Positions 3,970-49,253 of a stretch of 64,000 bases of DNA are shown in pieces. The first letter of the stretch is position 1; each line of letters opens with the position of its first letter. Source of the stretch: a virus; IMG/VR virus record IMGVR_UViG_3300025914_000009, positions 32,001 to 96,000 of that record. The stretch is one strand, 5' to 3'. The notes beneath the pieces are model-generated. The model made no database searches and was not told where the DNA came from. It saw nothing but the letters and a program-made list of their open reading frames with translations. The translations under genes and the position numbers were made by a program.

Positions 3970-4967
3970 ACTTCAGCAAGTTTTTTTACTTTTAACTTTT
4001 TCTCCAGTTCGAGTAAATCTTCCTGGTTTATTTCATCCATGAGGTGATCAATTAATTCTTGTTTATCTCTAAACACTTCCAGTTCTCCTTCATATACACG
4101 TCCACCTTTCTTCTCTTTGTAGATCTGGTGTTTGAAAGCTTGCTCTACTAAGTCTCTCACATATAAGGAGTCATCTTTCAGGTCTGCATATAAGCTGAAC
4201 ACTTTAACTGGATCTTTACCTTTGTGTACTCCATTGTCTACCTGGTTCTTTTTCAGGAAGTTATCTACAAGATTGTACACAGTTTCTTCTTTTGCACTAT
4301 CACCTACGGGCAGATCAAGTAGTCTTGCGACCTTCTTACGCTTTTCAAGAGACCAGCTATCAAACTTAATGATAGCATCATTAGCAGTCTTCTTTTTTCT
4401 GTACTGAAGAGCACTTTCAACATCCTCATCATTCACATAGTATTGTGTATCATGAGAATATTCTCCTCTCTCATAAGCAGCAAGTGAAGAGGCAATGCGT
4501 GGATCTGCAGCTAACCACAAATAAGTGATGTGCTGCCAGGGATCTTCCAGATTGAAGATGTTATCTCCATCTGCCAGCTTTACTGGTTCCACATGCGCTG
4601 TTCCTTTTTTAGATGTATAGTTGTAATACTCAGAAGTTGGTGACAGGTCAATTCCCGTAGCTTCTTCAAGCTTTTTTCTCAATGCTTTTACCTTCTCCTG
4701 CTCAAGCTTTCTAAGCTGAGGGTCTTCTATCTTGAGAATGTATTTAGCATGCTCATCTAGGCCATTTCTGTACTTCCCACTAAGTTCCTTAAATGGAAGC
4801 ATCATCTTGGTTGTACCAGGAGCTCTACTCATCCCTCTCTGTCTTAGAGATTTCTCCATAGTAGGGAATGCACCATCAAAGTCCTTCGGTATTACACTAA
4901 TCTTACCGATCTTACCCATAAGTAGTTGATTATTTGGTTTACTGTACCCCTGGTGGTCATGATCCAC
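3966..4967 (-). CDS. Capsid-module protein directly after MCP (true start probably the MGKIGK Met at ~4919)
   Basis: Long ORF; synteny with crAss-like capsid module. Confidence 0.6.
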   Translation of the reverse strand: MDHDHQGYSKPNNQLLMGKIGKISVIPKDFDGAFPTMEKSLRQRGMSRAPGTTKMMLPFKELSGKYRNGLDEHAKYILKIEDPQLRKLEQEKVKALRKKLEEATGIDLSPTSEYYNYTSKKGTAHVEPVKLADGDNIFNLEDPWQHITYLWLAADPRIASSLAAYERGEYSHDTQYYVNDEDVESALQYRKKKTANDAIIKFDSWSLEKRKKVARLLDLPVGDSAKEETVYNLVDNFLKKNQVDNGVHKGKDPVKVFSLYADLKDDSLYVRDLVEQAFKHQIYKEKKGGRVYEGELEVFRDKQELIDHLMDEINQEDLLELEKKLKVKKLAEV

Positions 4968-4990
4968 ATGCTTCTTAGGAAGGGGTATTT

Positions 4991-5032
4991 TGAAAAGAGG
5001 GCCCTGGAGGCGGGAAGTTTCAGGGCTCTCTT
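4991..5032 (-). terminator. Terminator after major capsid gene
   Basis: GAGAGCCCTG...CAGGGCCCTC hairpin followed by TTTT on minus strand. Confidence 0.6.
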
Positions 5033-5049
5033 CTCGGAAGGTTTCCTCA

Positions 5050-6594
5050 TTAGAACTGAGGAACTTCTTCTATAACGACGCAACGTGATAAATCTTCTAT
5101 AAAGACATCGTATCTATCATCCATGAAGATAGTATAACCATCAAACATGTTGGCAGCTGAGTGACCTTGTGATCTCATAGCTCCAAGGTGATGTCTACGC
5201 CCATCAATATATCCCCATGTCATTGAGGGTCTTCCCTTCATTCTTACTTCTCTGATATTGTTTCTCAGAGATCCATCTCCCTCAGGGGAAATGTCAAAGA
5301 CAAGGAATAATGGAGTTGATTTCTTATTCTGACCGAACTCAAGGTTAGATTGAGGTAAATCCAGTTCTTTTAAGTGAACCAGCTCAATTCTACCTGTTTC
5401 ACGAGTTACCATGCTTGAGAAGGCATAGTTTAGTGTTAGTTTCTGTTCAGCACCCTGAATGAATCTTGTATCAGCAATGATAGTAAGACCACTATTGAGA
5501 GCATCATCTTTCAGAGCTTGGTCGAATACATCGAACCCTGCTTCATTAGTGTATATCTTAACTCTTCTTTGTGCTACATCTACACGTCTGTAGAACAGAT
5601 CTCCAAACACAGCACGGAAGATATTAGTTGAGAACTCACCTCTGTTATACTGAACAAGGTTACCATTGTTTCTCATTCTGTAGTAAACTCCAGAAGATAC
5701 TTTCTTAACCTCTTGCTTAGAACCTCTTGTCTTCACGATACCTGGTTTACCCCAGATCATCTTTTGTACTTTCAGATCAAGCATTGCTTTTCTCATCCAG
5801 AACTCAATGAAAGGTTCCCATCTGATATCATGACGAGTAACTGGTTTCTCGTTTCTCTTACCATTGATGTACACCATCAGGTCAAGAGGCATACCATCTT
5901 TGTTCTTGAGCATACGATCATCTGCCCAACCAGTGATAGTATGTTTGTAACCTACAGCTGAACCTAAAGATTCATACATTGTGATCTTTTCAGCCATACG
6001 AGGAAGACCAGGAAGATCTTCATCGAACTCACCAATTGATTGATTTACAAGAGTAAACTCAATACCAGGTTCAAGGAATGTAGGATCAACGAACTCAACT
6101 TTAGGATTGCTCGATACAAGCGTGGCAGTGTAAAGGAATCCCATGTTGTAAGGCTGCGGATCTCTTATGATAGCAAATTGCTGACCATAGATCTTGTGTG
6201 GAGTGATGATCATATTCTGAGTGAACTCAGCTGAATCCATCACGAACTGGAACTCCTGACCATCAATACCTGGAGTGGTAAGATTCAGTGTGCTCGTAGG
6301 AACCTCGATGATCTTAGGGAATTTGTATGGTACTTCTACTTCCCATTGCCATGCATCAGAGTTGGTATCAATGTAGAACGGAGTAGACTTGTTGATCATG
6401 TCCAGGAAGTCATTGGCATACAATGAGCTCTGTGTATAAATGGAGATAATCTTCTTATCATAGTCCGCAGGATCTGTGGTATGGAAAGACTCCAGGTGAT
6501 TTGTGTCTGTGAGCTTACCAATAGCACGTTTGTCCATTGAAGCTACCCTGGCATAGGCAAAACCAGTAAAACCAGGTATTGTTTGTAAAGCCAT
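5050..6594 (-). CDS. Major capsid protein (crAss-like)
   Basis: 514 aa, follows acidic scaffold and portal; size and position typical of crAss-like MCP; followed by a terminator. Confidence 0.85.
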   Translation of the reverse strand: MALQTIPGFTGFAYARVASMDKRAIGKLTDTNHLESFHTTDPADYDKKIISIYTQSSLYANDFLDMINKSTPFYIDTNSDAWQWEVEVPYKFPKIIEVPTSTLNLTTPGIDGQEFQFVMDSAEFTQNMIITPHKIYGQQFAIIRDPQPYNMGFLYTATLVSSNPKVEFVDPTFLEPGIEFTLVNQSIGEFDEDLPGLPRMAEKITMYESLGSAVGYKHTITGWADDRMLKNKDGMPLDLMVYINGKRNEKPVTRHDIRWEPFIEFWMRKAMLDLKVQKMIWGKPGIVKTRGSKQEVKKVSSGVYYRMRNNGNLVQYNRGEFSTNIFRAVFGDLFYRRVDVAQRRVKIYTNEAGFDVFDQALKDDALNSGLTIIADTRFIQGAEQKLTLNYAFSSMVTRETGRIELVHLKELDLPQSNLEFGQNKKSTPLFLVFDISPEGDGSLRNNIREVRMKGRPSMTWGYIDGRRHHLGAMRSQGHSAANMFDGYTIFMDDRYDVFIEDLSRCVVIEEVPQF

Positions 6595-10920: not shown

Positions 10921-13017
10921 TTATATAAATAATTTTGATCTTCTTCTACCATTATTATATCTGATTGGAGAAGAGTTTGAGAAGTCGATTACTTTGTTTG
11001 TGCTTTTTTGTCCCTTGAAGTAAGCTTCAAATCTGGGATCTTTCTTTTCTGTGGATACTACGAACTGTGGATTAAGATGATCCGCCAGGGCAATGGCCAG
11101 CTCCGCAGCTACTATACGGTCATAGTTCCCTTCCTCTGAGTTGAAGTTAATAATTTCTTCCAAGAGCATAGGATCAAATACTCTGGTTACTCCCAGGGTC
11201 TCTATATTCTTCTCCTCTTCTCTGAAGATGACATCATCCAGATAAGATTTAAGTAGACCATCCAGGTGGTTCCTGATCCTATCACTCGATCTATGAATAC
11301 CATAATCCCTTCTAACTGAGGTATTTGGAACTATTTCTCTAAGCCAGCTCGGTTGAGGGGCCAGGTATCTTGCAGCTTCTCCTTTCTTGAGCATATAATC
11401 TATAAAGCTATACTCATCATTTTCACAAAGGGTATAGGCATTATAGTACTTAATGAGGAGTCTGGCAGTCTCATTCCACTTGTCTTTACTATCTGGCCTG
11501 GCTACATAAGAAGCTACAAATAGGTTTTGATATCTATCCGAGGCAATGTCATGTACCCTTTTAAAGATATACACTGCCCCAAGGGAGTCTGAATATTCAG
11601 ATCTACTCTGTCTATAAGGGTCAACTCCAGCTGTATAGAGTCCGAATGGTGGTTCATCATCTATTGGGAACTCCCAAATGACTGGAGGAGCATCAAGTGA
11701 AGTTGTGCTATCTGCAGGAAACTTGCTGATTGGTAGTTTATCACTGAACTTATGGCAAATCTTTTCTCCATCATGATATAAGTCTACCGGAGTACCAGTC
11801 TTCCCAAGGGCAGTAAGTCTATTCTTTTGAGCTTTAGCAGCTTCGATATTAAAGTCATTCTTTGTAAGAACCAGGAAGCTATCAGATGGAACCAGAGGCC
11901 AGAAGGCTTTGAACTTCAATACAGTCTTCTGATTACCAGATTTTATAGCTCTTGCATATTCTTTTTCCCACCACTCCCTAGCCTTCTCATAGTTGGTTAC
12001 CAGAATGGTAATTCTTTCTAAGTCAGGGTGTTGTATTCCCAAATAATCAGATAGCTTCATTGGATCCTTGTACTTGATCTTAGCCATTAAGGCATCAATG
12101 AATCTACCCATCTTTGTTCCTGGTATTTCAGGATTATCAAAGGGGAGTATGTTATAGGCTTCAGGGTGAAGGAACACTTCAGATGCCTCTTTACCTTTTT
12201 CCATATCACCCCCAGTGCCTGCTATCATAGCAAGACAGGAAGGTTTATCTTCTTTGGATGTACCAGACCACCAGGCACCTTCAGAGTCTTTGAAACAGGC
12301 AATGAAGTTTCTAATGGTACCAATTTCATCTATAAGATGGAAACCAGGTCTAGCTCCTACTGCTGCATCGCTCTTTGATCCTTCTTCAAAGTTTCTTATC
12401 TGTATAGATGATTGAGAAGATAAAGGAGATGTTATCCCTGTCTTCTTATCTTTCCAACCAGCCTTTATTTCTTTTTTCCAGTCATTAACAATCCTTTGCT
12501 TCTGCAGGATTGGATGTAGATTGATCAGACCATCTTCTACCTTATCAGTAGCAAGCTTGATATATGTACCATTACCTGCACTGATGATAGCTTCTGATTT
12601 GTCAAAGAGAGTGTACTGATAACCAGCTCTTGAGCCAGCCATGATAGATTTCCCGAAGTCACGAGATCCAACCAGGGCATAGAACTTACCTTTCTGTTCA
12701 CATTGAGTAAAGTCATCAGCTATTATCCACTCAATGTCCCTGAGATAGGGAGTATCAATAATTCTGATCTTCTTATTAAGTCTTTCATTTTCAATGTACA
12801 TGGCGATTTTCCAGTACACTGTGTGCCAATAGAGCCATCCAGAAATGTATACTTTCCCATCTGCCAGATAAAAGCCTTCCTTCATCCTACGCTTTTCTTC
12901 AGTCCAGTACTCCCTAAAGGTTTCCATAGCTGCTTCATCTGTAGGATCGTAAATAGGTTCTACCTGGTCGGGGAACCAAATGTTTTTAGTTTTCTGGGTA
13001 TACTTCTGGTCTATCAT
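10921..13017 (-). CDS. terL: Terminase large subunit
   Basis: Walker A-like GSRDFGKS, Walker B LIDEIG, GTGG coupling motif, nuclease GVDPY and YDRIVA. Confidence 0.92.
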   Translation of the reverse strand: MIDQKYTQKTKNIWFPDQVEPIYDPTDEAAMETFREYWTEEKRRMKEGFYLADGKVYISGWLYWHTVYWKIAMYIENERLNKKIRIIDTPYLRDIEWIIADDFTQCEQKGKFYALVGSRDFGKSIMAGSRAGYQYTLFDKSEAIISAGNGTYIKLATDKVEDGLINLHPILQKQRIVNDWKKEIKAGWKDKKTGITSPLSSQSSIQIRNFEEGSKSDAAVGARPGFHLIDEIGTIRNFIACFKDSEGAWWSGTSKEDKPSCLAMIAGTGGDMEKGKEASEVFLHPEAYNILPFDNPEIPGTKMGRFIDALMAKIKYKDPMKLSDYLGIQHPDLERITILVTNYEKAREWWEKEYARAIKSGNQKTVLKFKAFWPLVPSDSFLVLTKNDFNIEAAKAQKNRLTALGKTGTPVDLYHDGEKICHKFSDKLPISKFPADSTTSLDAPPVIWEFPIDDEPPFGLYTAGVDPYRQSRSEYSDSLGAVYIFKRVHDIASDRYQNLFVASYVARPDSKDKWNETARLLIKYYNAYTLCENDEYSFIDYMLKKGEAARYLAPQPSWLREIVPNTSVRRDYGIHRSSDRIRNHLDGLLKSYLDDVIFREEEKNIETLGVTRVFDPMLLEEIINFNSEEGNYDRIVAAELAIALADHLNPQFVVSTEKKDPRFEAYFKGQKSTNKVIDFSNSSPIRYNNGRRRSKLFI

Positions 13018-13313
13018 TATATTTCACCTTTCTCAATTGGAGAGAGCTCCTGATCTCCTCTAACTGAAGGAGACTTAGCTTCTTCTTTATCTCTGAGTTT
13101 ATCTATTGCTTCTACAATTAATATATAGTCTTTCAGAGTCTCTCTTATTGACTTTACCTGCTCTTCGATCTTGGATACTACTTTATCTCCCAGCATACGA
13201 TCTTTGAGCTTGTGTATAGGCTGATTACAATATTCGCGAATCTCTTTGGCTTTCTTCTCCAGCCACTCAAGCTCCATCCCTATATAGTTATTACTCGTCT
13301 TCTTAGTAGCCAT
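13017..13313 (-). CDS. Hypothetical protein, possible terminase small subunit
   Basis: 98 aa helical ORF translationally coupled to terL. Confidence 0.45.
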   Translation of the reverse strand: MATKKTSNNYIGMELEWLEKKAKEIREYCNQPIHKLKDRMLGDKVVSKIEEQVKSIRETLKDYILIVEAIDKLRDKEEAKSPSVRGDQELSPIEKGEI

Positions 13314-27131: not shown

Positions 27132-27238
27132 AGATGTCAATTATTAGTATATCTCAAAAGCGGAAAGGAGTTTCTACTCCTTTCTTTTAGTGTTATGTTT
27201 TTAATGGGTGGGGAGGGACTAACAATCCCTCCTTTTTT

Positions 27239-27345
27239 CGTTTCTTAGCACAAGGGTAGTGTATTACTTCTCTGGGCCGTTTTTCTATAAGAGTAGTAAA
27301 TTGGAGTGAGAAGTAAGGGTGAGAGTTCGACCCTCTCAGAAACGG
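27239..27345 (+). ncRNA. tRNA-like RNA with enlarged anticodon arm
   Basis: Acceptor CGTTTCT/AGAAACG, D arm, 9 bp stem TTACTTCTC/GAGAAGTAA enclosing ~35 nt, T arm GAGAG-TTCGACC-CTCTC. Confidence 0.75.
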
Positions 27346-27414
27346 CGGATCTGTTTTAAAAGGTTATCAAAGAGTATATTTTGCGACGGCCCCTGTTTCT
27401 ACAGTGGGCCTCTT

Positions 27415-27477
27415 CTTATTACACTGGCTAGTGTATTCCTTAAGGGATAGTAAGGTTCGAATCCTTACATAATAGCG
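27415..27477 (+). ncRNA. Degenerate miniature tRNA-like element
   Basis: T arm GTAAGG-TTCGAAT-CCTTAC, small D-like and shrunken anticodon-like hairpins. Confidence 0.45.
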
Positions 27478-27590
27478 ACTTCACGAAGTGACCTTTGGTT
27501 GGGGCACAGAAGTCAATCACTATTGTTAAAAATGTCCTTACAGGACAGGGAACCATTCGAGAGGAGTTTCTACTCCTCTCACTCTTTTTT

Positions 27591-27663
27591 GGGTGTGTAG
27601 CTCAATGGATAGAGTGTCTGACTTCGGATCAGAAAGTTAAGGGTTCGAATCCCTTCATGCCCA
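27591..27663 (+). tRNA. tRNA-Arg(TCG)
   Basis: Canonical cloverleaf, TCTGA CT-TCG-GA TCAGA. Confidence 0.92.
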
Positions 27664-27855
27664 CAGGTTTTATGGCTAATGGTGTTTGATTAGTATTGCA
27701 AGAATTTAGCAATAATCAGTACTATTAAACGCGCCCTGAGTTTCTACTTGGGGCTCTTTTTTATTAACAAACTTAGTTTTTTTTTTAGAGCATATAATCG
27801 TTAGAGCCCTCTTGTGTCTACAGGAGGGCATTTTTAACCAAAAAAACCAAAAATT

Positions 27856-36530: not shown

Positions 36531-38237
36531 ATGTTTGACAGCAAAAAGACACAGTTATTCTCCATGCCGGAGAAGAAGAAAACGACATCTGACTCACCAT
36601 TTGTGCAAGCAGGTCTCAAAAAGAAAGCTCAAGTCCTATCAGGAAATGGAGCTATCAAGTATTCTACAACAGGGAATGCTTTTGTAGACCAGTTTGGTAA
36701 GATGGGAGAGTACAAAAAGCCCAGATCTTTCTCTGATATAGAAAAAGATTGCGAAGCTCTATGGGCAATTGATCCTTTGAGGGCAATCAAGATGAGCTTT
36801 TACATACGTACAATTACCAGACCTACCGACTTATTAGGAAAAACTACTTCCATTACCCAGAGGGGTGCTGAGCTTAAGCATGAGGGTATAATGAGGCTTA
36901 TATGGTTGGCTACTAAAGATCAGCAAGCTTTCATAAAGAATCTATGGGTTCTTCCAGTCCTCGGATCATGGAAAGATATTATTACAATGCTTCAGTATGA
37001 TCTTGTATATCATGGATGGGGAGGTAGAGTTTTACCATGGGTAAGATTTGGTGATCTACTATTATCTGCCCTTGGGGATAAGAATACTTGTGAACTGGTA
37101 AAGAAATACATACCTAGTATCAAGACCAATTCAAAATGTACTACTGTAGAAGCACAGGCTGATACCATGATTGCCAAATGGCTTTGCGGACTTCTATATC
37201 CTGAATATGTAGATAGTCCTGATGAGGTGCATGGTAAGTTTCATAAAAAGTACAGGAAGATGAAAACCTCAGGTACTGCTCATGAATGGCAAAAGCTTAT
37301 TTCTCAGAAGAAATTCGATAGAATAGACTTTGGTAAGATTCATGGGCGTGCTTTATCACTCCTTGTAAGGAGTAAATTCCTGAAGCGTCAAGGCTTACAG
37401 GATAAATATGCGGCATGGGTTAAGAAGCCTACTACAGAGGTTAAATACACAGGATATGTCCATGAGCTGTTCTCAGAACTCTTCCGAGGAAGTATGAGTG
37501 CAAAATACCCAACCTTGGCAAGTGTTCCAGAACATATGAGAGATACTATCAACAAACAGTTTGTGACCCTGGTTAACAAAGGTAAATCAGAGGATCATAC
37601 CACCTCTCTGATTGTTGTTAGAGATACCTCAGGCTCAATGATGTCCACAGCTACGGGCACTAACATGTCTTCCTATGGAATCTCAAAGGCATTAGGGTTA
37701 TACTTTGCAGAGTTCTTGGAGGGCCCATTTGCAAACTCTTGGATAGAATTTAACAGCGGAGCCAAGATGCACCAATGGACAGGTAAGACCCCGATTGAAA
37801 AATGGTTCAATGACACAAGTTCTGTTGTGGGAGGTACTGATTTTCAATCAGTTGTGAAATTATTCTGCCAAATAAAGGCTCAGGGAGTTCCTGAATCTCA
37901 ATTCCCCTCAGGGATTCTATGTATTTCGGATGGTGAGTTCAATCCTGCCATGGCAAGCAAGACCAATGTAGAAAGCATGCTACTTACTCTAAGAAATGCT
38001 GGTTTCAGTGAGGATTATGTAAGTAACTTTGTTATTGTCTTCTGGAACATACCTAATCAGTATTATGGAGCCATGTCTAGAACAAAGTTCGAAACATATG
38101 GAAGTATCTCAAATGTATTCTACTTTGGGAGTTATTCAGCCTCTATAGTAGCCTTCTTAACATCCAAAATTCGAACAGCTGCAGAGCTGGTAGATGTAGC
38201 TCTTGATCAGGAAGTATTAAACTTAGTAAAGCTTTAG
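36531..38237 (+). CDS. Ro60/TROVE-like helical protein with C-terminal vWA domain (DUF2828-like)
   Basis: N-terminal SGNGAIKYSTTGNAFVDQF, GSWKD, vWA DTSGSM, GGTDF, ISDGEF; 568 aa, similar in size and layout to Ro60. Confidence 0.75.
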   Translation: MFDSKKTQLFSMPEKKKTTSDSPFVQAGLKKKAQVLSGNGAIKYSTTGNAFVDQFGKMGEYKKPRSFSDIEKDCEALWAIDPLRAIKMSFYIRTITRPTDLLGKTTSITQRGAELKHEGIMRLIWLATKDQQAFIKNLWVLPVLGSWKDIITMLQYDLVYHGWGGRVLPWVRFGDLLLSALGDKNTCELVKKYIPSIKTNSKCTTVEAQADTMIAKWLCGLLYPEYVDSPDEVHGKFHKKYRKMKTSGTAHEWQKLISQKKFDRIDFGKIHGRALSLLVRSKFLKRQGLQDKYAAWVKKPTTEVKYTGYVHELFSELFRGSMSAKYPTLASVPEHMRDTINKQFVTLVNKGKSEDHTTSLIVVRDTSGSMMSTATGTNMSSYGISKALGLYFAEFLEGPFANSWIEFNSGAKMHQWTGKTPIEKWFNDTSSVVGGTDFQSVVKLFCQIKAQGVPESQFPSGILCISDGEFNPAMASKTNVESMLLTLRNAGFSEDYVSNFVIVFWNIPNQYYGAMSRTKFETYGSISNVFYFGSYSASIVAFLTSKIRTAAELVDVALDQEVLNLVKL

Positions 38238-39324: not shown

Positions 39325-39330
39325 TTTCAA

Positions 39331-40200
39331 AAGGGCACATACAGCAAACATTATAACAATTCACCTACATTTGAATTAAAAGTGTGCCCTGTTAAGGTCT
39401 GCAACAGCAAATATATCCTTGTGGCACTGGGGGTCAGTGGTGGAAATCCACTCTGTGGGGAAACCCAAAGTAGCTTAGTACTTAGAGCACCAGTTGGAGA
39501 AAAAATGCAGACCTGTTAAGATACCTAACAGCAAACAATTTGATCCTCTTGTGGATTAGTAGCTTAATTGGTAAAGCGCCCAATTGATAATTGGGAGATC
39601 CTAGTTCAATTCTAGGCTTTAAAGAGGTATCTGATAAGGGTTCTTACAGCAAATATTAGCAAATGGAAACCTTTGGTCGGAGGTTCAAATCCTCCCCTCC
39701 CAACCAGATTTGGTGTCACCCTAAGGTGTTCAGGACAGCCAAATCTGGTGACTAATCAACCTGACCATATCTGGTTGGGAGGTAGCTCAGTCTGGTTAGA
39801 GCAGAGGATGCAACAAAAGAACCCTGATAAGGAGACTTACAGCAAAACAACTCAACTTTCAACCGTTTATTTGAAATAGAGAGTCTCCTGATAAAGTGCC
39901 ACACAGCAAATATTAATTCTTTTTCAACAAAGACCGCCCCTGGATGGGAGGAAGCTAAAGAGGTTCGATTCCTCAGGCACTTGATAAGGTGAGCAGCAGC
40001 ATTTAACTAAATAATGGCCCTAAGGTTGGGAAAACTGAAACAGTCATACCGATACTCTCATAGGTTAATACGAAAAGAGTAGTGTCAAAGGCCCCAAGGG
40101 GTACTGGCGGCTATACAAAGAATATGCTCATCTGATAAGGTCACATACAGCAAAAAGCTAAAAGCAATCATCTTGTAAATGATAAAAACTGTGACCTGAT
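39331..40200 (+). ncRNA. Tandem array of 8 stem-closed ACAGCAAA RNA cassettes (Y-RNA-like)
   Basis: Each unit: 7-9 bp closing stem, ACAGCAAA (39341, 39404, 39528, 39646, 39839, 39903, variant 39996, 40147), variable payload, complementary strand, linker G(A/T)TA. Confidence 0.85.
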
Positions 40201-41894: not shown

Positions 41895-42686
41895 ATGTTA
41901 AAGTTAAACAAGTTACTGGCACTAGTAGAGTCCTCTACTCCTGTATTCAGAAAACTTATTGCAGAATACAAACTCTTTTTCGAAAAGAAACAAGGTGAAT
42001 TTCAAGGTGTTCGAAAGACTTACACCCCAAGGGAAGGTACAAAGGATGAGCCTTCTATGCGACAGTTTAAACAAGTTGTTACTACTATTCAGGAGAAGCT
42101 CAAATATATGGAACAAAACTCCTTTGAGCACCTAAATAATGTTATGTCTGTAGAAGCTACAAATGCTTCAGGTGCAGCAAAGGCAGAATTGGTAGTAAAT
42201 GGTATCAGCTTTGGAAAGCTATCTACGCTAGAGCTTATGAAGCTTAAGTCTATTCTCGAAAAGGAGGGACTGGAAGCTATGTATGCAACTATACCTGTAA
42301 GAAGTGATGCTGAGATATGGAACCCTACTATTGATCCTCTCTATCAAAATAGAGAGATCATGGAAACTCCAATGCAGACAGGTGTTAGTAAGAGTATTGA
42401 GAAAGAGGAGTATATTCTGGCAGATCCCAATCTAAAGAATATGGCAGACACTTCAAGATATACTCCGGTGAAATCTGTGAAGAATACTATTGTTGATTTG
42501 GGAGATTATACACTGCAACACTTCTCAGGGGAATCTACTCATAAGTATAGAGCCAGCATACTTAAGAAAAGAAGTGATTTACTGGAAGCTATCAATGGTG
42601 CTATCAAAGAGGCTAATGATGTACCTGTAGTTCAATCAGAATTCAGTGCTTTCAAGTTATTTGATTATCTTCACGGCGAAGATTAA
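41895..42686 (+). CDS. Conserved 263 aa helical protein
   Basis: KLN...GVRKTYTP...FSG...EAN...FDYL; resembles, from memory only, a family found near TROVE/Y-RNA loci. Confidence 0.7.
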   Translation: MLKLNKLLALVESSTPVFRKLIAEYKLFFEKKQGEFQGVRKTYTPREGTKDEPSMRQFKQVVTTIQEKLKYMEQNSFEHLNNVMSVEATNASGAAKAELVVNGISFGKLSTLELMKLKSILEKEGLEAMYATIPVRSDAEIWNPTIDPLYQNREIMETPMQTGVSKSIEKEEYILADPNLKNMADTSRYTPVKSVKNTIVDLGDYTLQHFSGESTHKYRASILKKRSDLLEAINGAIKEANDVPVVQSEFSAFKLFDYLHGED

Positions 42687-42915
42687 ATTCTCTTTTATGC
42701 CTAAATCTAAAAGGTTAAGACCTTCCAGTACCCCTGGGAGGCAAAAGAACTCCAACTGTCAGAAAAGTGTTGCTAAAAACTTTGTAACTTTGGACACCAA
42801 AGGGTTTAAAAAAGAACCCAATTTGTGGCTTCAAGGATGCATAGAGATTAGCAATATGAAGGGTAACTACCCTACGCAGGAGGTAATACAATCACGTAAC
42901 TAAAAACATTGTGAG

Positions 42916-43389
42916 ATGGATGTACAATATTTTATAGATAAGTTTGGGGCTATTCCTGAAGAACAATGGACAACTGAGTGCTATCAAGATAACCAAAACA
43001 GGAGATGTGCTCTTGGTCACTGCTCTCCAAATGTTATGAGTAAGTATAAAGATGAACGAGTGGAGAGCTTTGTTGAGATAGCAGAGAGTCAAGAGGAAGA
43101 AGGCAGAGTGCTTTTGCAGTTATTTTGGGATCATGAGCTCTGTGTTCCACCAGTGAATGATGGATACGAGATAAGGTACACACAAGGTACCCCAAAGCAA
43201 AGAATCCTAGCTGCCCTAAGGGATATACAGAAGAAGGAACAGATGAAGACTGCTTCTATAATTCCTCTTTGCTCAGAGTGTGGCAAACCTATCACAGAAT
43301 GTGATTGTGAAGAAGAGATTGACGAGGAAGAAGATTGGGGCGCAGGAGCTGCAGAAGAGGTAGATCATATAGTACTAGAAGTTATTTAA
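42916..43389 (+). CDS. Hypothetical protein, paralog of 34731 with CxxC/acidic tail
   Basis: IPEEQW...RCALGHC...TPKQRI. Confidence 0.65.
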   Translation: MDVQYFIDKFGAIPEEQWTTECYQDNQNRRCALGHCSPNVMSKYKDERVESFVEIAESQEEEGRVLLQLFWDHELCVPPVNDGYEIRYTQGTPKQRILAALRDIQKKEQMKTASIIPLCSECGKPITECDCEEEIDEEEDWGAGAAEEVDHIVLEVI

Positions 43390-43400
43390 ATATTTGACCT

Positions 43401-43471
43401 AGACTTAGACTTAGACTTAAGCTCAAATCAGTCCCCAGACGATTTAGACTTAGACTTGTGTCAAAAGACTT
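43401..43471 (+). repeat. AGACTT hexamer repeats (6 copies)
   Basis: 3 tandem at 43401, 2 tandem at 43446, 1 at 43466. Confidence 0.8.
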
Positions 43472-43490
43472 AGGTTCAGAACAACAAAAT

Positions 43491-43925
43491 AAGATGTCAG
43501 GTAGTTAATTAAATCCATAGGTCGCAGGTTTGAATCCTGTCTCCGCCTCTGTTCCGTAGCATTTTTTGTTTAAACGGCTGGTGTTTCTACATTAGCCTCA
43601 TTTTAAACCAAATACTCATCATATGGCAGGAAAAGCTGGTGGTAAAGGTGGCAGAAAGATCGGAAGAAACAAGCGTAGAAATGAAAGAAAAGGTAGTCCA
43701 ATCTCCCTTTTTGTTAGAGGAAAGATCACTGCGCACAAGTATTGGGAATTAACTGGGTTGTCTTCTCGTATTAAGCAGAGAGAAGCTGCCTAAAGTATCT
43801 ATTGTCCAATAATAGACAAGTCCAGAGAACTGAGTTTCTACTCCCTTCTCTGGCATTCAAGGCGGAGTAGTTCAGTTGACAGAACAATGGAATAATATTA
43901 GCTTAAGGCTACTTGAAAACATCTT
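43491..43925 (+). ncRNA. Split, circularly permuted tRNA-like RNA enclosing a small ORF
   Basis: 3' half (TCCAT, T arm, CTCCGCC) at 43514-43547; 5' half (GGCGGAG, D arm, ATGGA) at 43861-43891; outer stem AAGATGT-CAGGTAG/CTACTTG-ACATCTT. Confidence 0.7.
43623..43793 (+). CDS. Small basic G/K/R-rich protein (56 aa)
   Basis: MAGKAGGKGGRKIGRNKRR...KQREAA. Confidence 0.6.
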   Translation: MAGKAGGKGGRKIGRNKRRNERKGSPISLFVRGKITAHKYWELTGLSSRIKQREAA

Positions 43926-43952
43926 GACAGTGAAAAACTGTATTAATTACAG

Positions 43953-43991
43953 GGAGGGCGGATAGGATAGATTCCCCCCTCCCCTTTTTTT
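43953..43991 (+). terminator. Intrinsic terminator
   Basis: GGGAGGG...CCCTCCC followed by T-run. Confidence 0.7.
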
Positions 43992-44008
43992 CTTCTTATC
44001 TATCACAA

Positions 44009-44102
44009 GGCGAAGTATGCAAATTGGTAAAGCAGTCCTCGTTGAGAGGATGGGACTAAATTCTGGGTAATGTCCATGGTAGTTCGAATCTATCCCTCGC
44101 CA
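44009..44102 (+). ncRNA. Leu-type tRNA-like RNA with non-canonical anticodon loop
   Basis: Acceptor GGCGAAG/CCTCGCC, D loop AAATTGGTAAA, long variable arm, loop CGTTGAG lacks U33. Confidence 0.6.
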
Positions 44103-44115
44103 CTAAAATTCTTTT

Positions 44116-44349
44116 ATGAAAAGACTTCTTTATTTATGTATCATTCTCCTATCCTTTGGGGGATGTGGTGAGAAAAAGCCTATAAAGGGTGATTGGATCT
44201 GGGTTCATATTGATACAGATCTTAGTGAATTCAATGGTAAAATCATCTCACAAATGATTCCCGGAGATGGAGATCAGATAACTATTGTTTTTACTGACAC
44301 AACTAGAGTTACTCTTAAAGCCTGCTCTAATCTTAAACTCTACAAGTAA
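44116..44349 (+). CDS. Putative lipoprotein
   Basis: MKRLLYLCIILLSFGGC lipobox-like signal. Confidence 0.6.
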   Translation: MKRLLYLCIILLSFGGCGEKKPIKGDWIWVHIDTDLSEFNGKIISQMIPGDGDQITIVFTDTTRVTLKACSNLKLYK

Positions 44350-48834: not shown

Positions 48835-48935
48835 AGTCAGATAGCTCAGTTGGTTAGAGTACCTGCTAGGGCTTGATCGAAAGATCAACGAAGCTGCCGC
48901 ACAGGAGGTCAGGAGTTCGAATCTCCCTCTGACTT
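48835..48935 (+). ncRNA. tRNA-like RNA with enlarged anticodon arm capped by GAAA
   Basis: Acceptor AGTCAGA/TCTGACT, D arm GCTC-AGTTGGTTA-GAGT, insert TTGATC-GAAA-GATCAA, T arm with TTCGAAT. Confidence 0.75.
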
Positions 48936-49195: not shown

Positions 49196-49253
49196 AGGGG
49201 GATAGCTCAGTGGTAGAGCATTCTTGTCGGAAGTTCGATTCTTCCTCCCCCTA
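49196..49253 (+). ncRNA. tRNA-like RNA with no anticodon arm
   Basis: AGGGGGA-TA-GCTC-AGTGGTA-GAGC-ATTCTTGTC-GGAAG-TTCGATT-CTTCC-TCCCCCT-A; ends 2 nt before the polB ATG. Confidence 0.8.

Follow-up and report, generated by a model that had tools for sequence, protein, structure and literature searches.

A circularly permuted tRNA-like RNA is encoded at 43491-43925, on the plus strand, of a 64,000-nucleotide (nt) stretch of viral DNA (hereafter the window), which represents bases 32001-96000 of IMG/VR record IMGVR_UViG_3300025914_000009. The record (124,983 bp, 39% G+C) comes from a large soil phage. We found that the pairing of this RNA is conserved in relatives and that RNAs of the same kind lie downstream of genes for DUF7873 proteins, on the same strand, in 72 of 81 loci. 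On balance, we consider it probable that the RNA is a YrlA-type tRNA mimic from a phage family that is tied to DUF7873 and often accompanied by a Ro60-fold protein, and that its acceptor linker is excised to leave a two-piece RNA. As judged from a literature search, the DUF7873-linked RNA family is undescribed so far; it is widespread in phages. Coordinates of the features are collected in Table 1.

A permuted tRNA-like domain conserved across its insert

Read from 5' to 3', the domain consists of the anticodon-stem 3' strand, T arm and acceptor 3' strand, then 313 nt, and then the acceptor 5' strand, D arm and anticodon-stem 5' strand. The 3' half is made up of TCCAT (43514-43518), the variable loop AGGTC (43519-43523), the T arm GCAGG-TTTGAAT-CCTGT (43524-43540), the acceptor 3' strand CTCCGCC (43541-43547), and T73 and C74 (43548-43549). 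The 5' half comprises GGCGGAG (43861-43867), TA, the D arm GTTC-AGTTGACA-GAAC (43870-43885), a single A and ATGGA (43887-43891). Tertiary pairs typical of tRNA are possible at the locus (U8-A14, G15-C48 and G18-U55), with A19-U56 in place of the usual G19-C56. Furthermore, the minimum free energy (MFE) fold of 43470-43945 is the permuted cloverleaf (-125.9 kcal/mol, z -2.45), and a fold as good was obtained for one of 100 shuffled sequences. A strict permuted-tRNA scan, in which T arm, acceptor strand, gap, acceptor strand, D arm and anticodon stem had to follow one another, returned this site only from both strands of the whole genome. Elsewhere, the D-arm and anticodon-stem pattern of the 5' half belongs to phage tRNA-Arg(UCU) genes (65 of 66 ARAGORN calls). 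Neither ARAGORN nor Rfam made a call at 43491-43925, as expected with a 313-nt interruption, and an Rfam search with the site alone gave three chance-level matches. An earlier, sequence-only reading of the window had claimed acceptor and anticodon stems joining permuted halves 313 nt apart, a long outer stem in place of the anticodon loop, and an insert with two hairpins and a basic open reading frame (ORF) of 56 amino acids (aa). All of these are present, with some coordinates refined here.

Two relatives with the whole locus (contigs L002 and L003), whose DUF7873 proteins are 74-75% identical to that of the window, were available for assessing the pairing. In the three-locus alignment 152 of 156 cells pair (97.4%), and 16 of 52 pairs were changed on both sides. 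None of 500 shuffles was as good, and no slid register came close. In the two relatives, changes on both sides affected the acceptor stem (4 of 7 pairs), the T stem (2 of 5), the distal part of the outer helix (3 of 7) and hairpin 2 of the insert (6 of 12). The linkers of the three loci measure 256, 313 and 403 nt; as pairing is kept across linkers of differing length, the halves belong together. The split, permuted RNA that had been proposed is thus borne out by pairing conserved across the insert, with every helix kept in both relatives; unconserved pairing, named there as refuting, was not found. Pattern scans for the locus recovered only these two known relatives, the hits in L014 and L015 being chance matches in coding sequence, and a blastn search of GenBank phages was without any match. 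Partial contigs of relatives were recovered from four DNA runs; one has 309 nt replacing 279 nt of the insert, and none of them holds both acceptor strands.

The DUF7873-linked RNA family

On phage-size contigs 92 DUF7873 homologues were found, and a profile of 33 homologues yielded 80 IMG/VR loci (contigs of approximately 5-554 kb), to which the window was added as the 81st. A scanner applied within 1200 nt downstream of the DUF7873 stop matched in 62 of the 81 loci, the window included, giving 40 distinct sequences. We also built a covariance model, R1, from 24 short-linker members. It matched just downstream of DUF7873 in 69 of the 80 loci (E <= 0.01), 24 of them by construction, and long-linker members fitted it partly. 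The total of 72 loci with the RNA is made up of these 69 together with L085, L097 and the window, which came from the scanner. Among the nine loci without it, two are cut at the contig end, L096 keeps the 5' half only (by eye), and six, on contigs of 158-554 kb, have nothing there. In a relaxed scan of both strands over 1.25 Mb, all 113 matches fell on the DUF7873 strand and none on the other. In the window, R1 did not match 43491-43925, where the 313-nt linker is beyond the span of the model; it matched 39666-39811 (49.8 bits). The T arm begins 840 nt after the DUF7873 stop in the window and 131-387 nt after it in other members.

The pairing of DUF7873 with the RNA occurs in large phages from at least 26 IMG/VR datasets and often heads tRNA gene arrays. 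From this placement, the mature RNA may act in tRNA biology or help to counter systems that target tRNA. In L109, approximately 30 tRNA genes directly follow the RNA, and a phage transfer-messenger RNA (tmRNA; 4526-5120, 76.4 bits) lies near the DUF7873 locus. Near that of L125 is a group I intron (12797-13076, 76.3 bits).

Across the family, the 42 best R1 matches (31 distinct) pair in 95.4% of cells of the model-fitted alignment, with 20 of 21 pairs, including all seven of the acceptor stem, changed on both sides; none of 500 shuffles was as good. The 19-56 tertiary pair covaries as well, C56 occurring with GG in 34 members and U56 with GA in 6, with no discordant case among 40. All 40 distinct members have a 7-bp acceptor stem, which the scanner required, and all have C74; position 73 holds U in 33 members and G in the other 7, and the usual base at position 76 is A. 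Occurrence in 72 of 81 loci, together with the compensatory changes, excludes decay or chance. The halves do resemble tRNA-Arg(UCU), but insertion into a normal tRNA gene would have left the 5' half upstream and not downstream, and we give hardly any credence to a decayed or chance tRNA gene split by an insertion. The same verdict applies to a two-piece (permuted) tmRNA-like RNA. The topology of the phage RNA equals that of permuted ssrA genes; the 3:70 pair here, however, is C-G and not G-U, no tag frame or pseudoknot region lies downstream, and neither ARAGORN nor Rfam calls a tmRNA at the site.

The outer helix, which takes the place of the anticodon loop, consists of two helices split by a 3-nt A-rich bulge in the 3' strand. 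This pattern is found in 26 of the 40 distinct members. Support from its control was modest: in 26 of the 40 members the real duplex was better than 95 of 100 shuffles (mean z -2.28). These features bear on whether the locus might be a genuine permuted tRNA gene like those of red algae, with a precursor that is closed into a circle or religated at the outer helix and so yields a decoding tRNA, perhaps a suppressor. The 3' half does lie upstream of the 5' half, all tRNA core features are kept, and the triplet before AAA-UCCAU varies across the three loci (UUA, CCA or CUA). Nevertheless, there is no 7-nt anticodon loop and, by inspection, no bulge-helix-bulge motif, no RtcB was found in the genome, the outer helix with its 3-nt bulge is itself kept across the family, and orthologues score as YrlA and not as tRNA. 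A decoding tRNA is thus very improbable. A reading of UUA, CCA and CUA as suppressor anticodons was likewise rejected, as there is no restorable loop and no RtcB.

Upstream of the domain, the family shares a leader with a common layout, in which TTGACN is followed by two to four NAGNYT hexamers, a box resembling ATCCTAGAT at the centre, more hexamers, N'GTCAA and further hexamers. NAGNYT hexamers average 5.65 per 130-nt leader, versus 1.28 in control windows, and the leader of the window has seven. AGACTT is the version of the window's clade, with AGCTTT or AGCATT elsewhere in the family. It occurs six times in 43401-43471 (starts at 43401, 43407, 43413, 43446, 43452 and 43466), which is the only such cluster in the 125-kb genome (at least three within 80 nt, either strand). 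The AGACTT repeats noticed ahead of the RNA in the sequence-only reading are therefore conserved as a class, and in the neighbourhoods of DUF7873 homologues, to which that reading had pointed, repeats and permuted tRNA recur together across the family. Two more hexamers follow the anticodon-stem 5' strand family-wide, here TAGCTT AAGGCT (43899-43910). Since these lie in a transcribed and paired part, the hexamers are RNA elements, and the array suggests reading by a multimeric protein. The TTGACN and N'GTCAA arms are both present in 29 of the 40 distinct members, and the three TCGAC arms are all matched by GTCGA. The sixth pair of the arms is complementary in 19 of the 29, with one further G-U, and the window's clade has a C-T mismatch. 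This is suggestive of a helix between the arms. A leader fold based on three sequences showed no compensatory pairs and was dropped in favour of these arms.

In most loci the leader begins a few bases past the DUF7873 stop; in the window it begins 5 nt past the stop of the 157-aa ORF, for which no family match was found. The leader's position hard against the DUF7873 stop leaves no room for a promoter, which points to co-transcription, and the RNA is probably read from the plus strand in the same transcript as the upstream genes.

A second protein often accompanies the family. The Ro60-like protein of the window was modelled by AlphaFold (predicted local distance difference test score, pLDDT, 88.8), and its top 11 Foldseek PDB matches were all Ro60, TROVE or Rsr structures (best 1yvr, E 3e-6, template modelling scores 0.49/0.52). 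The best PDB profile matches were also Ro60 (E 0.0015), and the DxSxS motif of the metal ion-dependent adhesion site (MIDAS) is invariant in 40 homologues. Pfam TROVE had no match to this protein nor elsewhere in the genome. Of the 81 DUF7873 loci, 40 have a Ro60-fold gene on the same strand at a distance of no more than 8 kb. In approximately 25 of those 40, many of them close relatives from one dataset, it adjoins the DUF7873 start (by coordinates). The tie of the 263-aa protein to TROVE and Y-RNA loci that the sequence-only reading proposed is thus supported. Among five records without a Ro-like gene within 8 kb, two have one elsewhere and one, a complete 175-kb phage genome with terminal repeats (G002, the record of L097), has none: it carries DUF7873 and the RNA (203-nt linker), with no match to the Ro-like profile. 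For DUF7873 itself, a PDB profile search gave chance-level matches only, Atlas leads did not exceed 0.82, and a literature search found no paper.

Features expected of YrlA RNAs include a Ro60 orthologue encoded on the same strand no more than approximately 4 kb away, binding to Ro60/Rsr and modification by TruB/DusA (Chen et al. 2014; Rfam RF02553). According to PMC4201824, they occur near Ro60 genes in 254 bacterial species and 22 phages, the phages named there being mycobacteriophages; PMC7824862 mentions a tRNA-like partner of TROVE proteins in jumbo phages. Short-linker orthologues of the window RNA matched Rfam YrlA in three of the four loci scanned (45.9, 39.4 and 35.5 bits; E 4.5e-7 to 4.7e-4); the matches are significant but fall short of the gathering score of 69 bits. 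The label 'Y-like' given in the sequence-only reading is in this sense supported, at a sub-threshold level, by positional orthologues. In architecture and model similarity the RNA is YrlA-like, and its constant companion is DUF7873. A YrlA-type tRNA mimic as fixed neighbour of DUF7873 gives this protein a testable role, as a second candidate partner beside Ro60.

Other tRNA-like modules stand directly after the Ro-like gene (39330-40200), where we observed approximately nine RNA modules with stems framed by 5' ACAGCAA and 3' CTGATAAGG or CTGTTAAGG. One of them, 39666-39811, is a YrlA-like RNA with a 74-nt acceptor hairpin (Rfam 31.9 bits, R1 49.8 bits). Another, 39558-39618, is a tRNA body without an acceptor stem, and 39396-39515 is a GAAA-capped permuted tRNA (by eye).

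Acceptor linker, embedded gene and predicted processing

The length of the acceptor linker varies widely among the 62 loci with a scanner match (16-29 nt in 32, 59-131 nt in 25 and 203-403 nt in 5). The short linkers are A/U-rich and unstructured, with MFE values of 0 to -0.7 kcal/mol in 30 of 31 distinct sequences and -2.2 kcal/mol in L147, and linkers of 59-131 nt hold assorted hairpins. An ORF of more than 25 aa is found only in the window's clade, leaving 57 of the 62 members without any linker ORF. That the acceptor linker ranges from 16 to 403 nt and, in one clade, holds a working gene indicates that it does not belong to the functional RNA.

Both hairpins of the insert are capped by GTTTCTAC, which provides a GU/AC stem top and a UUCU loop. 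This sequence occurs 13 times in the window against 2.07 expected (0 of 100 shuffles reached 13) and 15 times genome-wide. Ten of the 15 copies form hairpin tops (by eye), mostly followed by T runs, and such hairpins are the general hairpin type of this phage. Hairpin 1 is missing in L002 and degenerate in L003. In a further non-coding region of the window (27140-27850), four GUUUCUAC-topped hairpins with T runs were observed together with two isolated T-arm-like hairpins and a tRNA-Arg(UCG).

Judged from its pattern of change, the 56-aa ORF is a real coding gene, since it has 15 homologues (12 of them on contigs outside the comparison) and a synonymous and third-position bias. Among the three loci there are 19-26 differences at codon position 3 versus 3-7 at positions 1 and 2, and 14-22 synonymous versus 7-9 non-synonymous codon changes. 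The protein had no Pfam, PHROG or NCBIfam family and a best Atlas score of 0.75; its model is helical (pLDDT 70.9), and Foldseek gave no PDB match. A metagenome scan with the protein returned six loci, two identical to L002 and four with distant homologues that lack the permuted tRNA. The distant homologues are ordinary genes in other phage contigs. Two were seen directly upstream of a tmRNA-like 5' end (L011, 225-350) and of a tRNA (L013, 604-672), a placement that hints at a link between the small-protein family and tRNA-like genes. The L002 linker starts with TCTA and ends with CAATTCAA, as short linkers do; to judge by these ends, the insert seems to have arisen when a gene cassette entered a short linker that was already there.

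The constrained flanks of the linker (7-bp acceptor, N73 and C74) suggest, by analogy with Mycobacterium smegmatis YrlA, that RNase P and trimming act on the RNA. The M. smegmatis YrlA has a 7-bp acceptor stem, the determinant named for its cleavage, and is cut by RNase P RNA in vitro; in vivo it is found as halves of 82 and 65 nt, with CA added after an encoded C (PMC4201824). The phage domain is a full look-alike of a pre-tRNA, in which the acceptor has 7 bp, the T stem has 5 bp and the elbow is intact, and host RNase P is for that reason predicted to cut at G+1 (43861). Trimming would take the 3' side back to U73-C74 (43548-43549), and CCA would then be completed, so that the 5' piece would end in ...CUCCGCCUCCA, with the CA untemplated. 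The linker would be discarded in most of the family; in the window's clade it may be freed as an mRNA for the 56-aa protein, with hairpin 2 as a protective element at its 3' end. The predicted mature product is a nicked, two-piece RNA held by approximately 36 base pairs and carrying the hexamer leader, and it might serve as a tRNA-mimic ligand for DUF7873, a Ro-like protein or both.

Two other fates of the transcript were considered. The RNA could remain in one piece, the tRNA-like clamp and outer helix shielding the small mRNA in cis from end-dependent nucleases or gating its translation. The ORF does lie within a loop closed by approximately 36 bp, and, as hairpin 2 has no U tract, transcription should continue into the 5' half. 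Moreover, RNase P failed to cut two of the three bacterial Y RNAs examined, namely Salmonella Typhimurium YrlA and Deinococcus radiodurans Yrn1 (PMC4201824). With 57 of 62 members lacking a linker ORF, however, the clamp did not evolve for an mRNA, and the 7-bp acceptor, single-stranded flanks and invariant C74 are what tRNA-processing enzymes need, the first being the cleavage determinant named for M. smegmatis YrlA. We regard a one-piece clamp as unlikely. Still less probable is that the halves are separate transcripts assembled in trans, the first ending at hairpin 1 and the second comprising the ORF and the 5' half. Hairpin 1 is the sole terminator-like call in 43200-44300, and hairpins of its type precede T runs at gene ends elsewhere in the genome. 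Yet in L002 the ORF follows the 3' half with no hairpin between them, and in L003 the hairpin is degenerate. Only approximately 25 nt separate hairpin 1 from the ATG, with no plus-strand promoter-like site called there, and short-linker relatives have no space for a second promoter.

Several observations weigh against a YrlA-type RNA from which the linker is excised. The window RNA itself has neither an Rfam nor an R1 match, its linker being longer than those models span, and the covariation counts from 31 sequences rest on a model-fitted alignment while the scanner selects for pairing. The uncut S. Typhimurium and D. radiodurans RNAs count here as well, and some of the transcripts could end between the halves, at hairpin 1 and its U tract. 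As for the link to Ro60, the Ro-like gene is 5.3 kb from the RNA here, and one complete relative has DUF7873 and the RNA without it; the RNA may therefore serve for something other than Ro binding. The YrlA motif GNCGAAN0-1G, a proposed Ro60 contact, was not found (no G.CGAA on the plus strand of 42676-44008), and neither was, at the RNA, the ACAGCAA...CTGATAAG frame of the nine Y-like modules.

Even so, we favour the processed, two-piece tRNA mimic. The variation in linker length supports two-piece, CCA-tailed Y RNAs as a general form and not a peculiarity of M. smegmatis. If the processing model is true, the small gene would be expressed from inside a Y RNA, and the two ends of its mRNA would be set by the enzymes that process tRNA, here at work on a non-coding RNA. 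A literature search found no description of mRNA ends set in such an arrangement, nor of a hexamer leader or of a gene inside the acceptor linker of a Y RNA; some related phages may already appear in the supplementary tables of PMC4201824. More tentatively, the locus might specify a new phage ribonucleoprotein, in which the NAG hexamers, repeated with period 6 in leader and 3' flank, are recognised by DUF7873, the two-piece domain with its CCA tail interacts with the tRNA machinery of the host or serves as a decoy for defences that target tRNA, a Ro-like ring is an optional third partner, and output of the small basic protein is hard-wired to RNase P and 3' processing.

Further tRNA-like features surround the locus. 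On its minus strand the window has an array of 21 tRNA genes, and on its plus strand several unusual tRNA-like elements. Past the likely transcript end, where hairpins resembling that at 43952-43991 are also seen in other DUF7873-linked loci (by eye), lies a second tRNA-like gene (44009-44103). Its variable arm has 26 nt, and its anticodon loop has 5 nt in the window and L002 and 7 nt in L003; equivalents of it follow the RNA in other DUF7873 loci (by eye). Just before the DNA polymerase gene are two odd tRNA-like elements (48835-48935 and 49196-49253), one with 36 nt for an anticodon loop and the other with 4 nt for the entire anticodon arm.

Table 1 Features of the RNA locus and associated genes in the window
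Feature	Coordinates	Strand	Basis or remarks
Ro60-like protein, 568 aa; helical TROVE-type ring and von Willebrand factor A (vWA) domain with MIDAS motif; possible partner of the RNA	36531-38237	+	Pfam DUF7788 and DUF2828; PHROG 850 'RNA-binding protein'
DUF7873 protein, 263 aa; marker gene of the RNA family	41895-42686	+	Pfam PF25283, E 5.7e-33
157-aa ORF with acidic, Cys-containing C-terminus	42916-43389	+	between DUF7873 and RNA leader, in the window's clade only
Conserved leader: TTGACC (43394-43399) and inverted partner GTCAA (43460-43464) flanking NAGNYT hexamers	43394-43480	+	nearly invariant in two relatives
Outer helix, 5' strand	43491-43509	+	pairs with 43897-43925; 3 of 7 distal pairs changed on both sides in relatives
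tRNA-like 3' half: anticodon-stem 3' strand, variable loop, T arm, acceptor 3' strand, U73, C74	43514-43549	+	sequence, covariation, strict scan
Acceptor linker (insert), 313 nt, predicted to be excised	43548-43860	+	length comparison across the family
Hairpin 1, GUUUCUAC top, then UCAUUUU; terminator-like	43576-43597	+	terminator scan
Gene for 56-aa basic protein	43623-43793	+	15 homologues; codon-position bias
Hairpin 2, GUUUCUAC top, ending 7 nt before the acceptor 5' strand, without U tract	43822-43853	+	kept in both relatives, 6 of 12 pairs changed on both sides
tRNA-like 5' half: acceptor 5' strand, U8 A9, D arm, A26, anticodon-stem 5' strand	43861-43891	+	sequence, covariation
Outer helix, 3' strand, with AAA bulge (43916-43918)	43897-43925	+	MFE fold, covariation
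Likely transcript 3' end: G+C-rich hairpin, loop GGATAGGATAGATTCC, then T run	43952-43991	+	sequence; kept in L002 and L003
Second tRNA-like gene, long variable arm, non-canonical anticodon loop	44009-44103	+	ARAGORN 'tRNA-Gln', 95 nt; Rfam tRNA 31.6 bits; kept in relatives

Comparison with known systems

The closest known RNA is YrlA (RF02553), which shares with the phage family the order of T arm, acceptor-like stem and D arm, the tRNA tertiary pairs, RNA ends that form a long stem at the position of the anticodon arm, and a Ro60-type protein encoded on the strand of the RNA. Further features shared by the M. smegmatis YrlA are the 7-bp acceptor and an encoded C after it, which corresponds to the invariant C74 of the family. 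In contrast to YrlA, the family scores 35-46 bits against the 69-bit gathering score, has NAGNYT hexamers in the leader and 3' flank, and has DUF7873, not Ro60, as its constant neighbour. The window RNA lacks the GNCGAA motif, the Ro-like protein here is of the DUF2828/DUF7788 type and not Pfam TROVE, and the linker of the window's clade holds a protein gene.

The hexamers, and only these, recall TRAP (trp RNA-binding attenuation protein), which binds (G/U)AG triplet repeats in the trp leader. Many NAG triplets at regular short spacing in a single-stranded leader are common to both, but the spacing here is 6 nt and no TRAP-like protein was identified.

Permuted order is known from two other systems. 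In permuted ssrA genes of alpha-proteobacteria and cyanobacteria, the T arm and the acceptor 3' strand come ahead of the acceptor 5' strand; the segment between them is cut out, and the resulting pieces remain base-paired. The phage locus has the same upstream placement of acceptor 3' strand and T arm, but its RNA lacks G3:U70, a tag frame and pseudoknots, and has a full D arm and anticodon stem. In Cyanidioschyzon merolae, permuted tRNA genes have their intervening sequence removed by RNase P and RNase Z and yield a normal tRNA after bulge-helix-bulge circularisation. They share with the phage RNA a 3' half that precedes the 5' half and acceptor ends joined by an intervening sequence, whereas the phage has no restorable anticodon loop and no RtcB, and its junction is a conserved bulged helix.

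Finally, tRNA-like processing signals free neighbouring RNAs in mitochondrial tRNA punctuation and in MALAT1/mascRNA. If the processing model holds, the phage locus would share with them an RNase P cut at a tRNA-shaped element that sets the 3' end of an upstream mRNA. It would differ in that the mRNA lies between the acceptor strands, so that one mimic would set both mRNA ends while itself surviving as two pieces.

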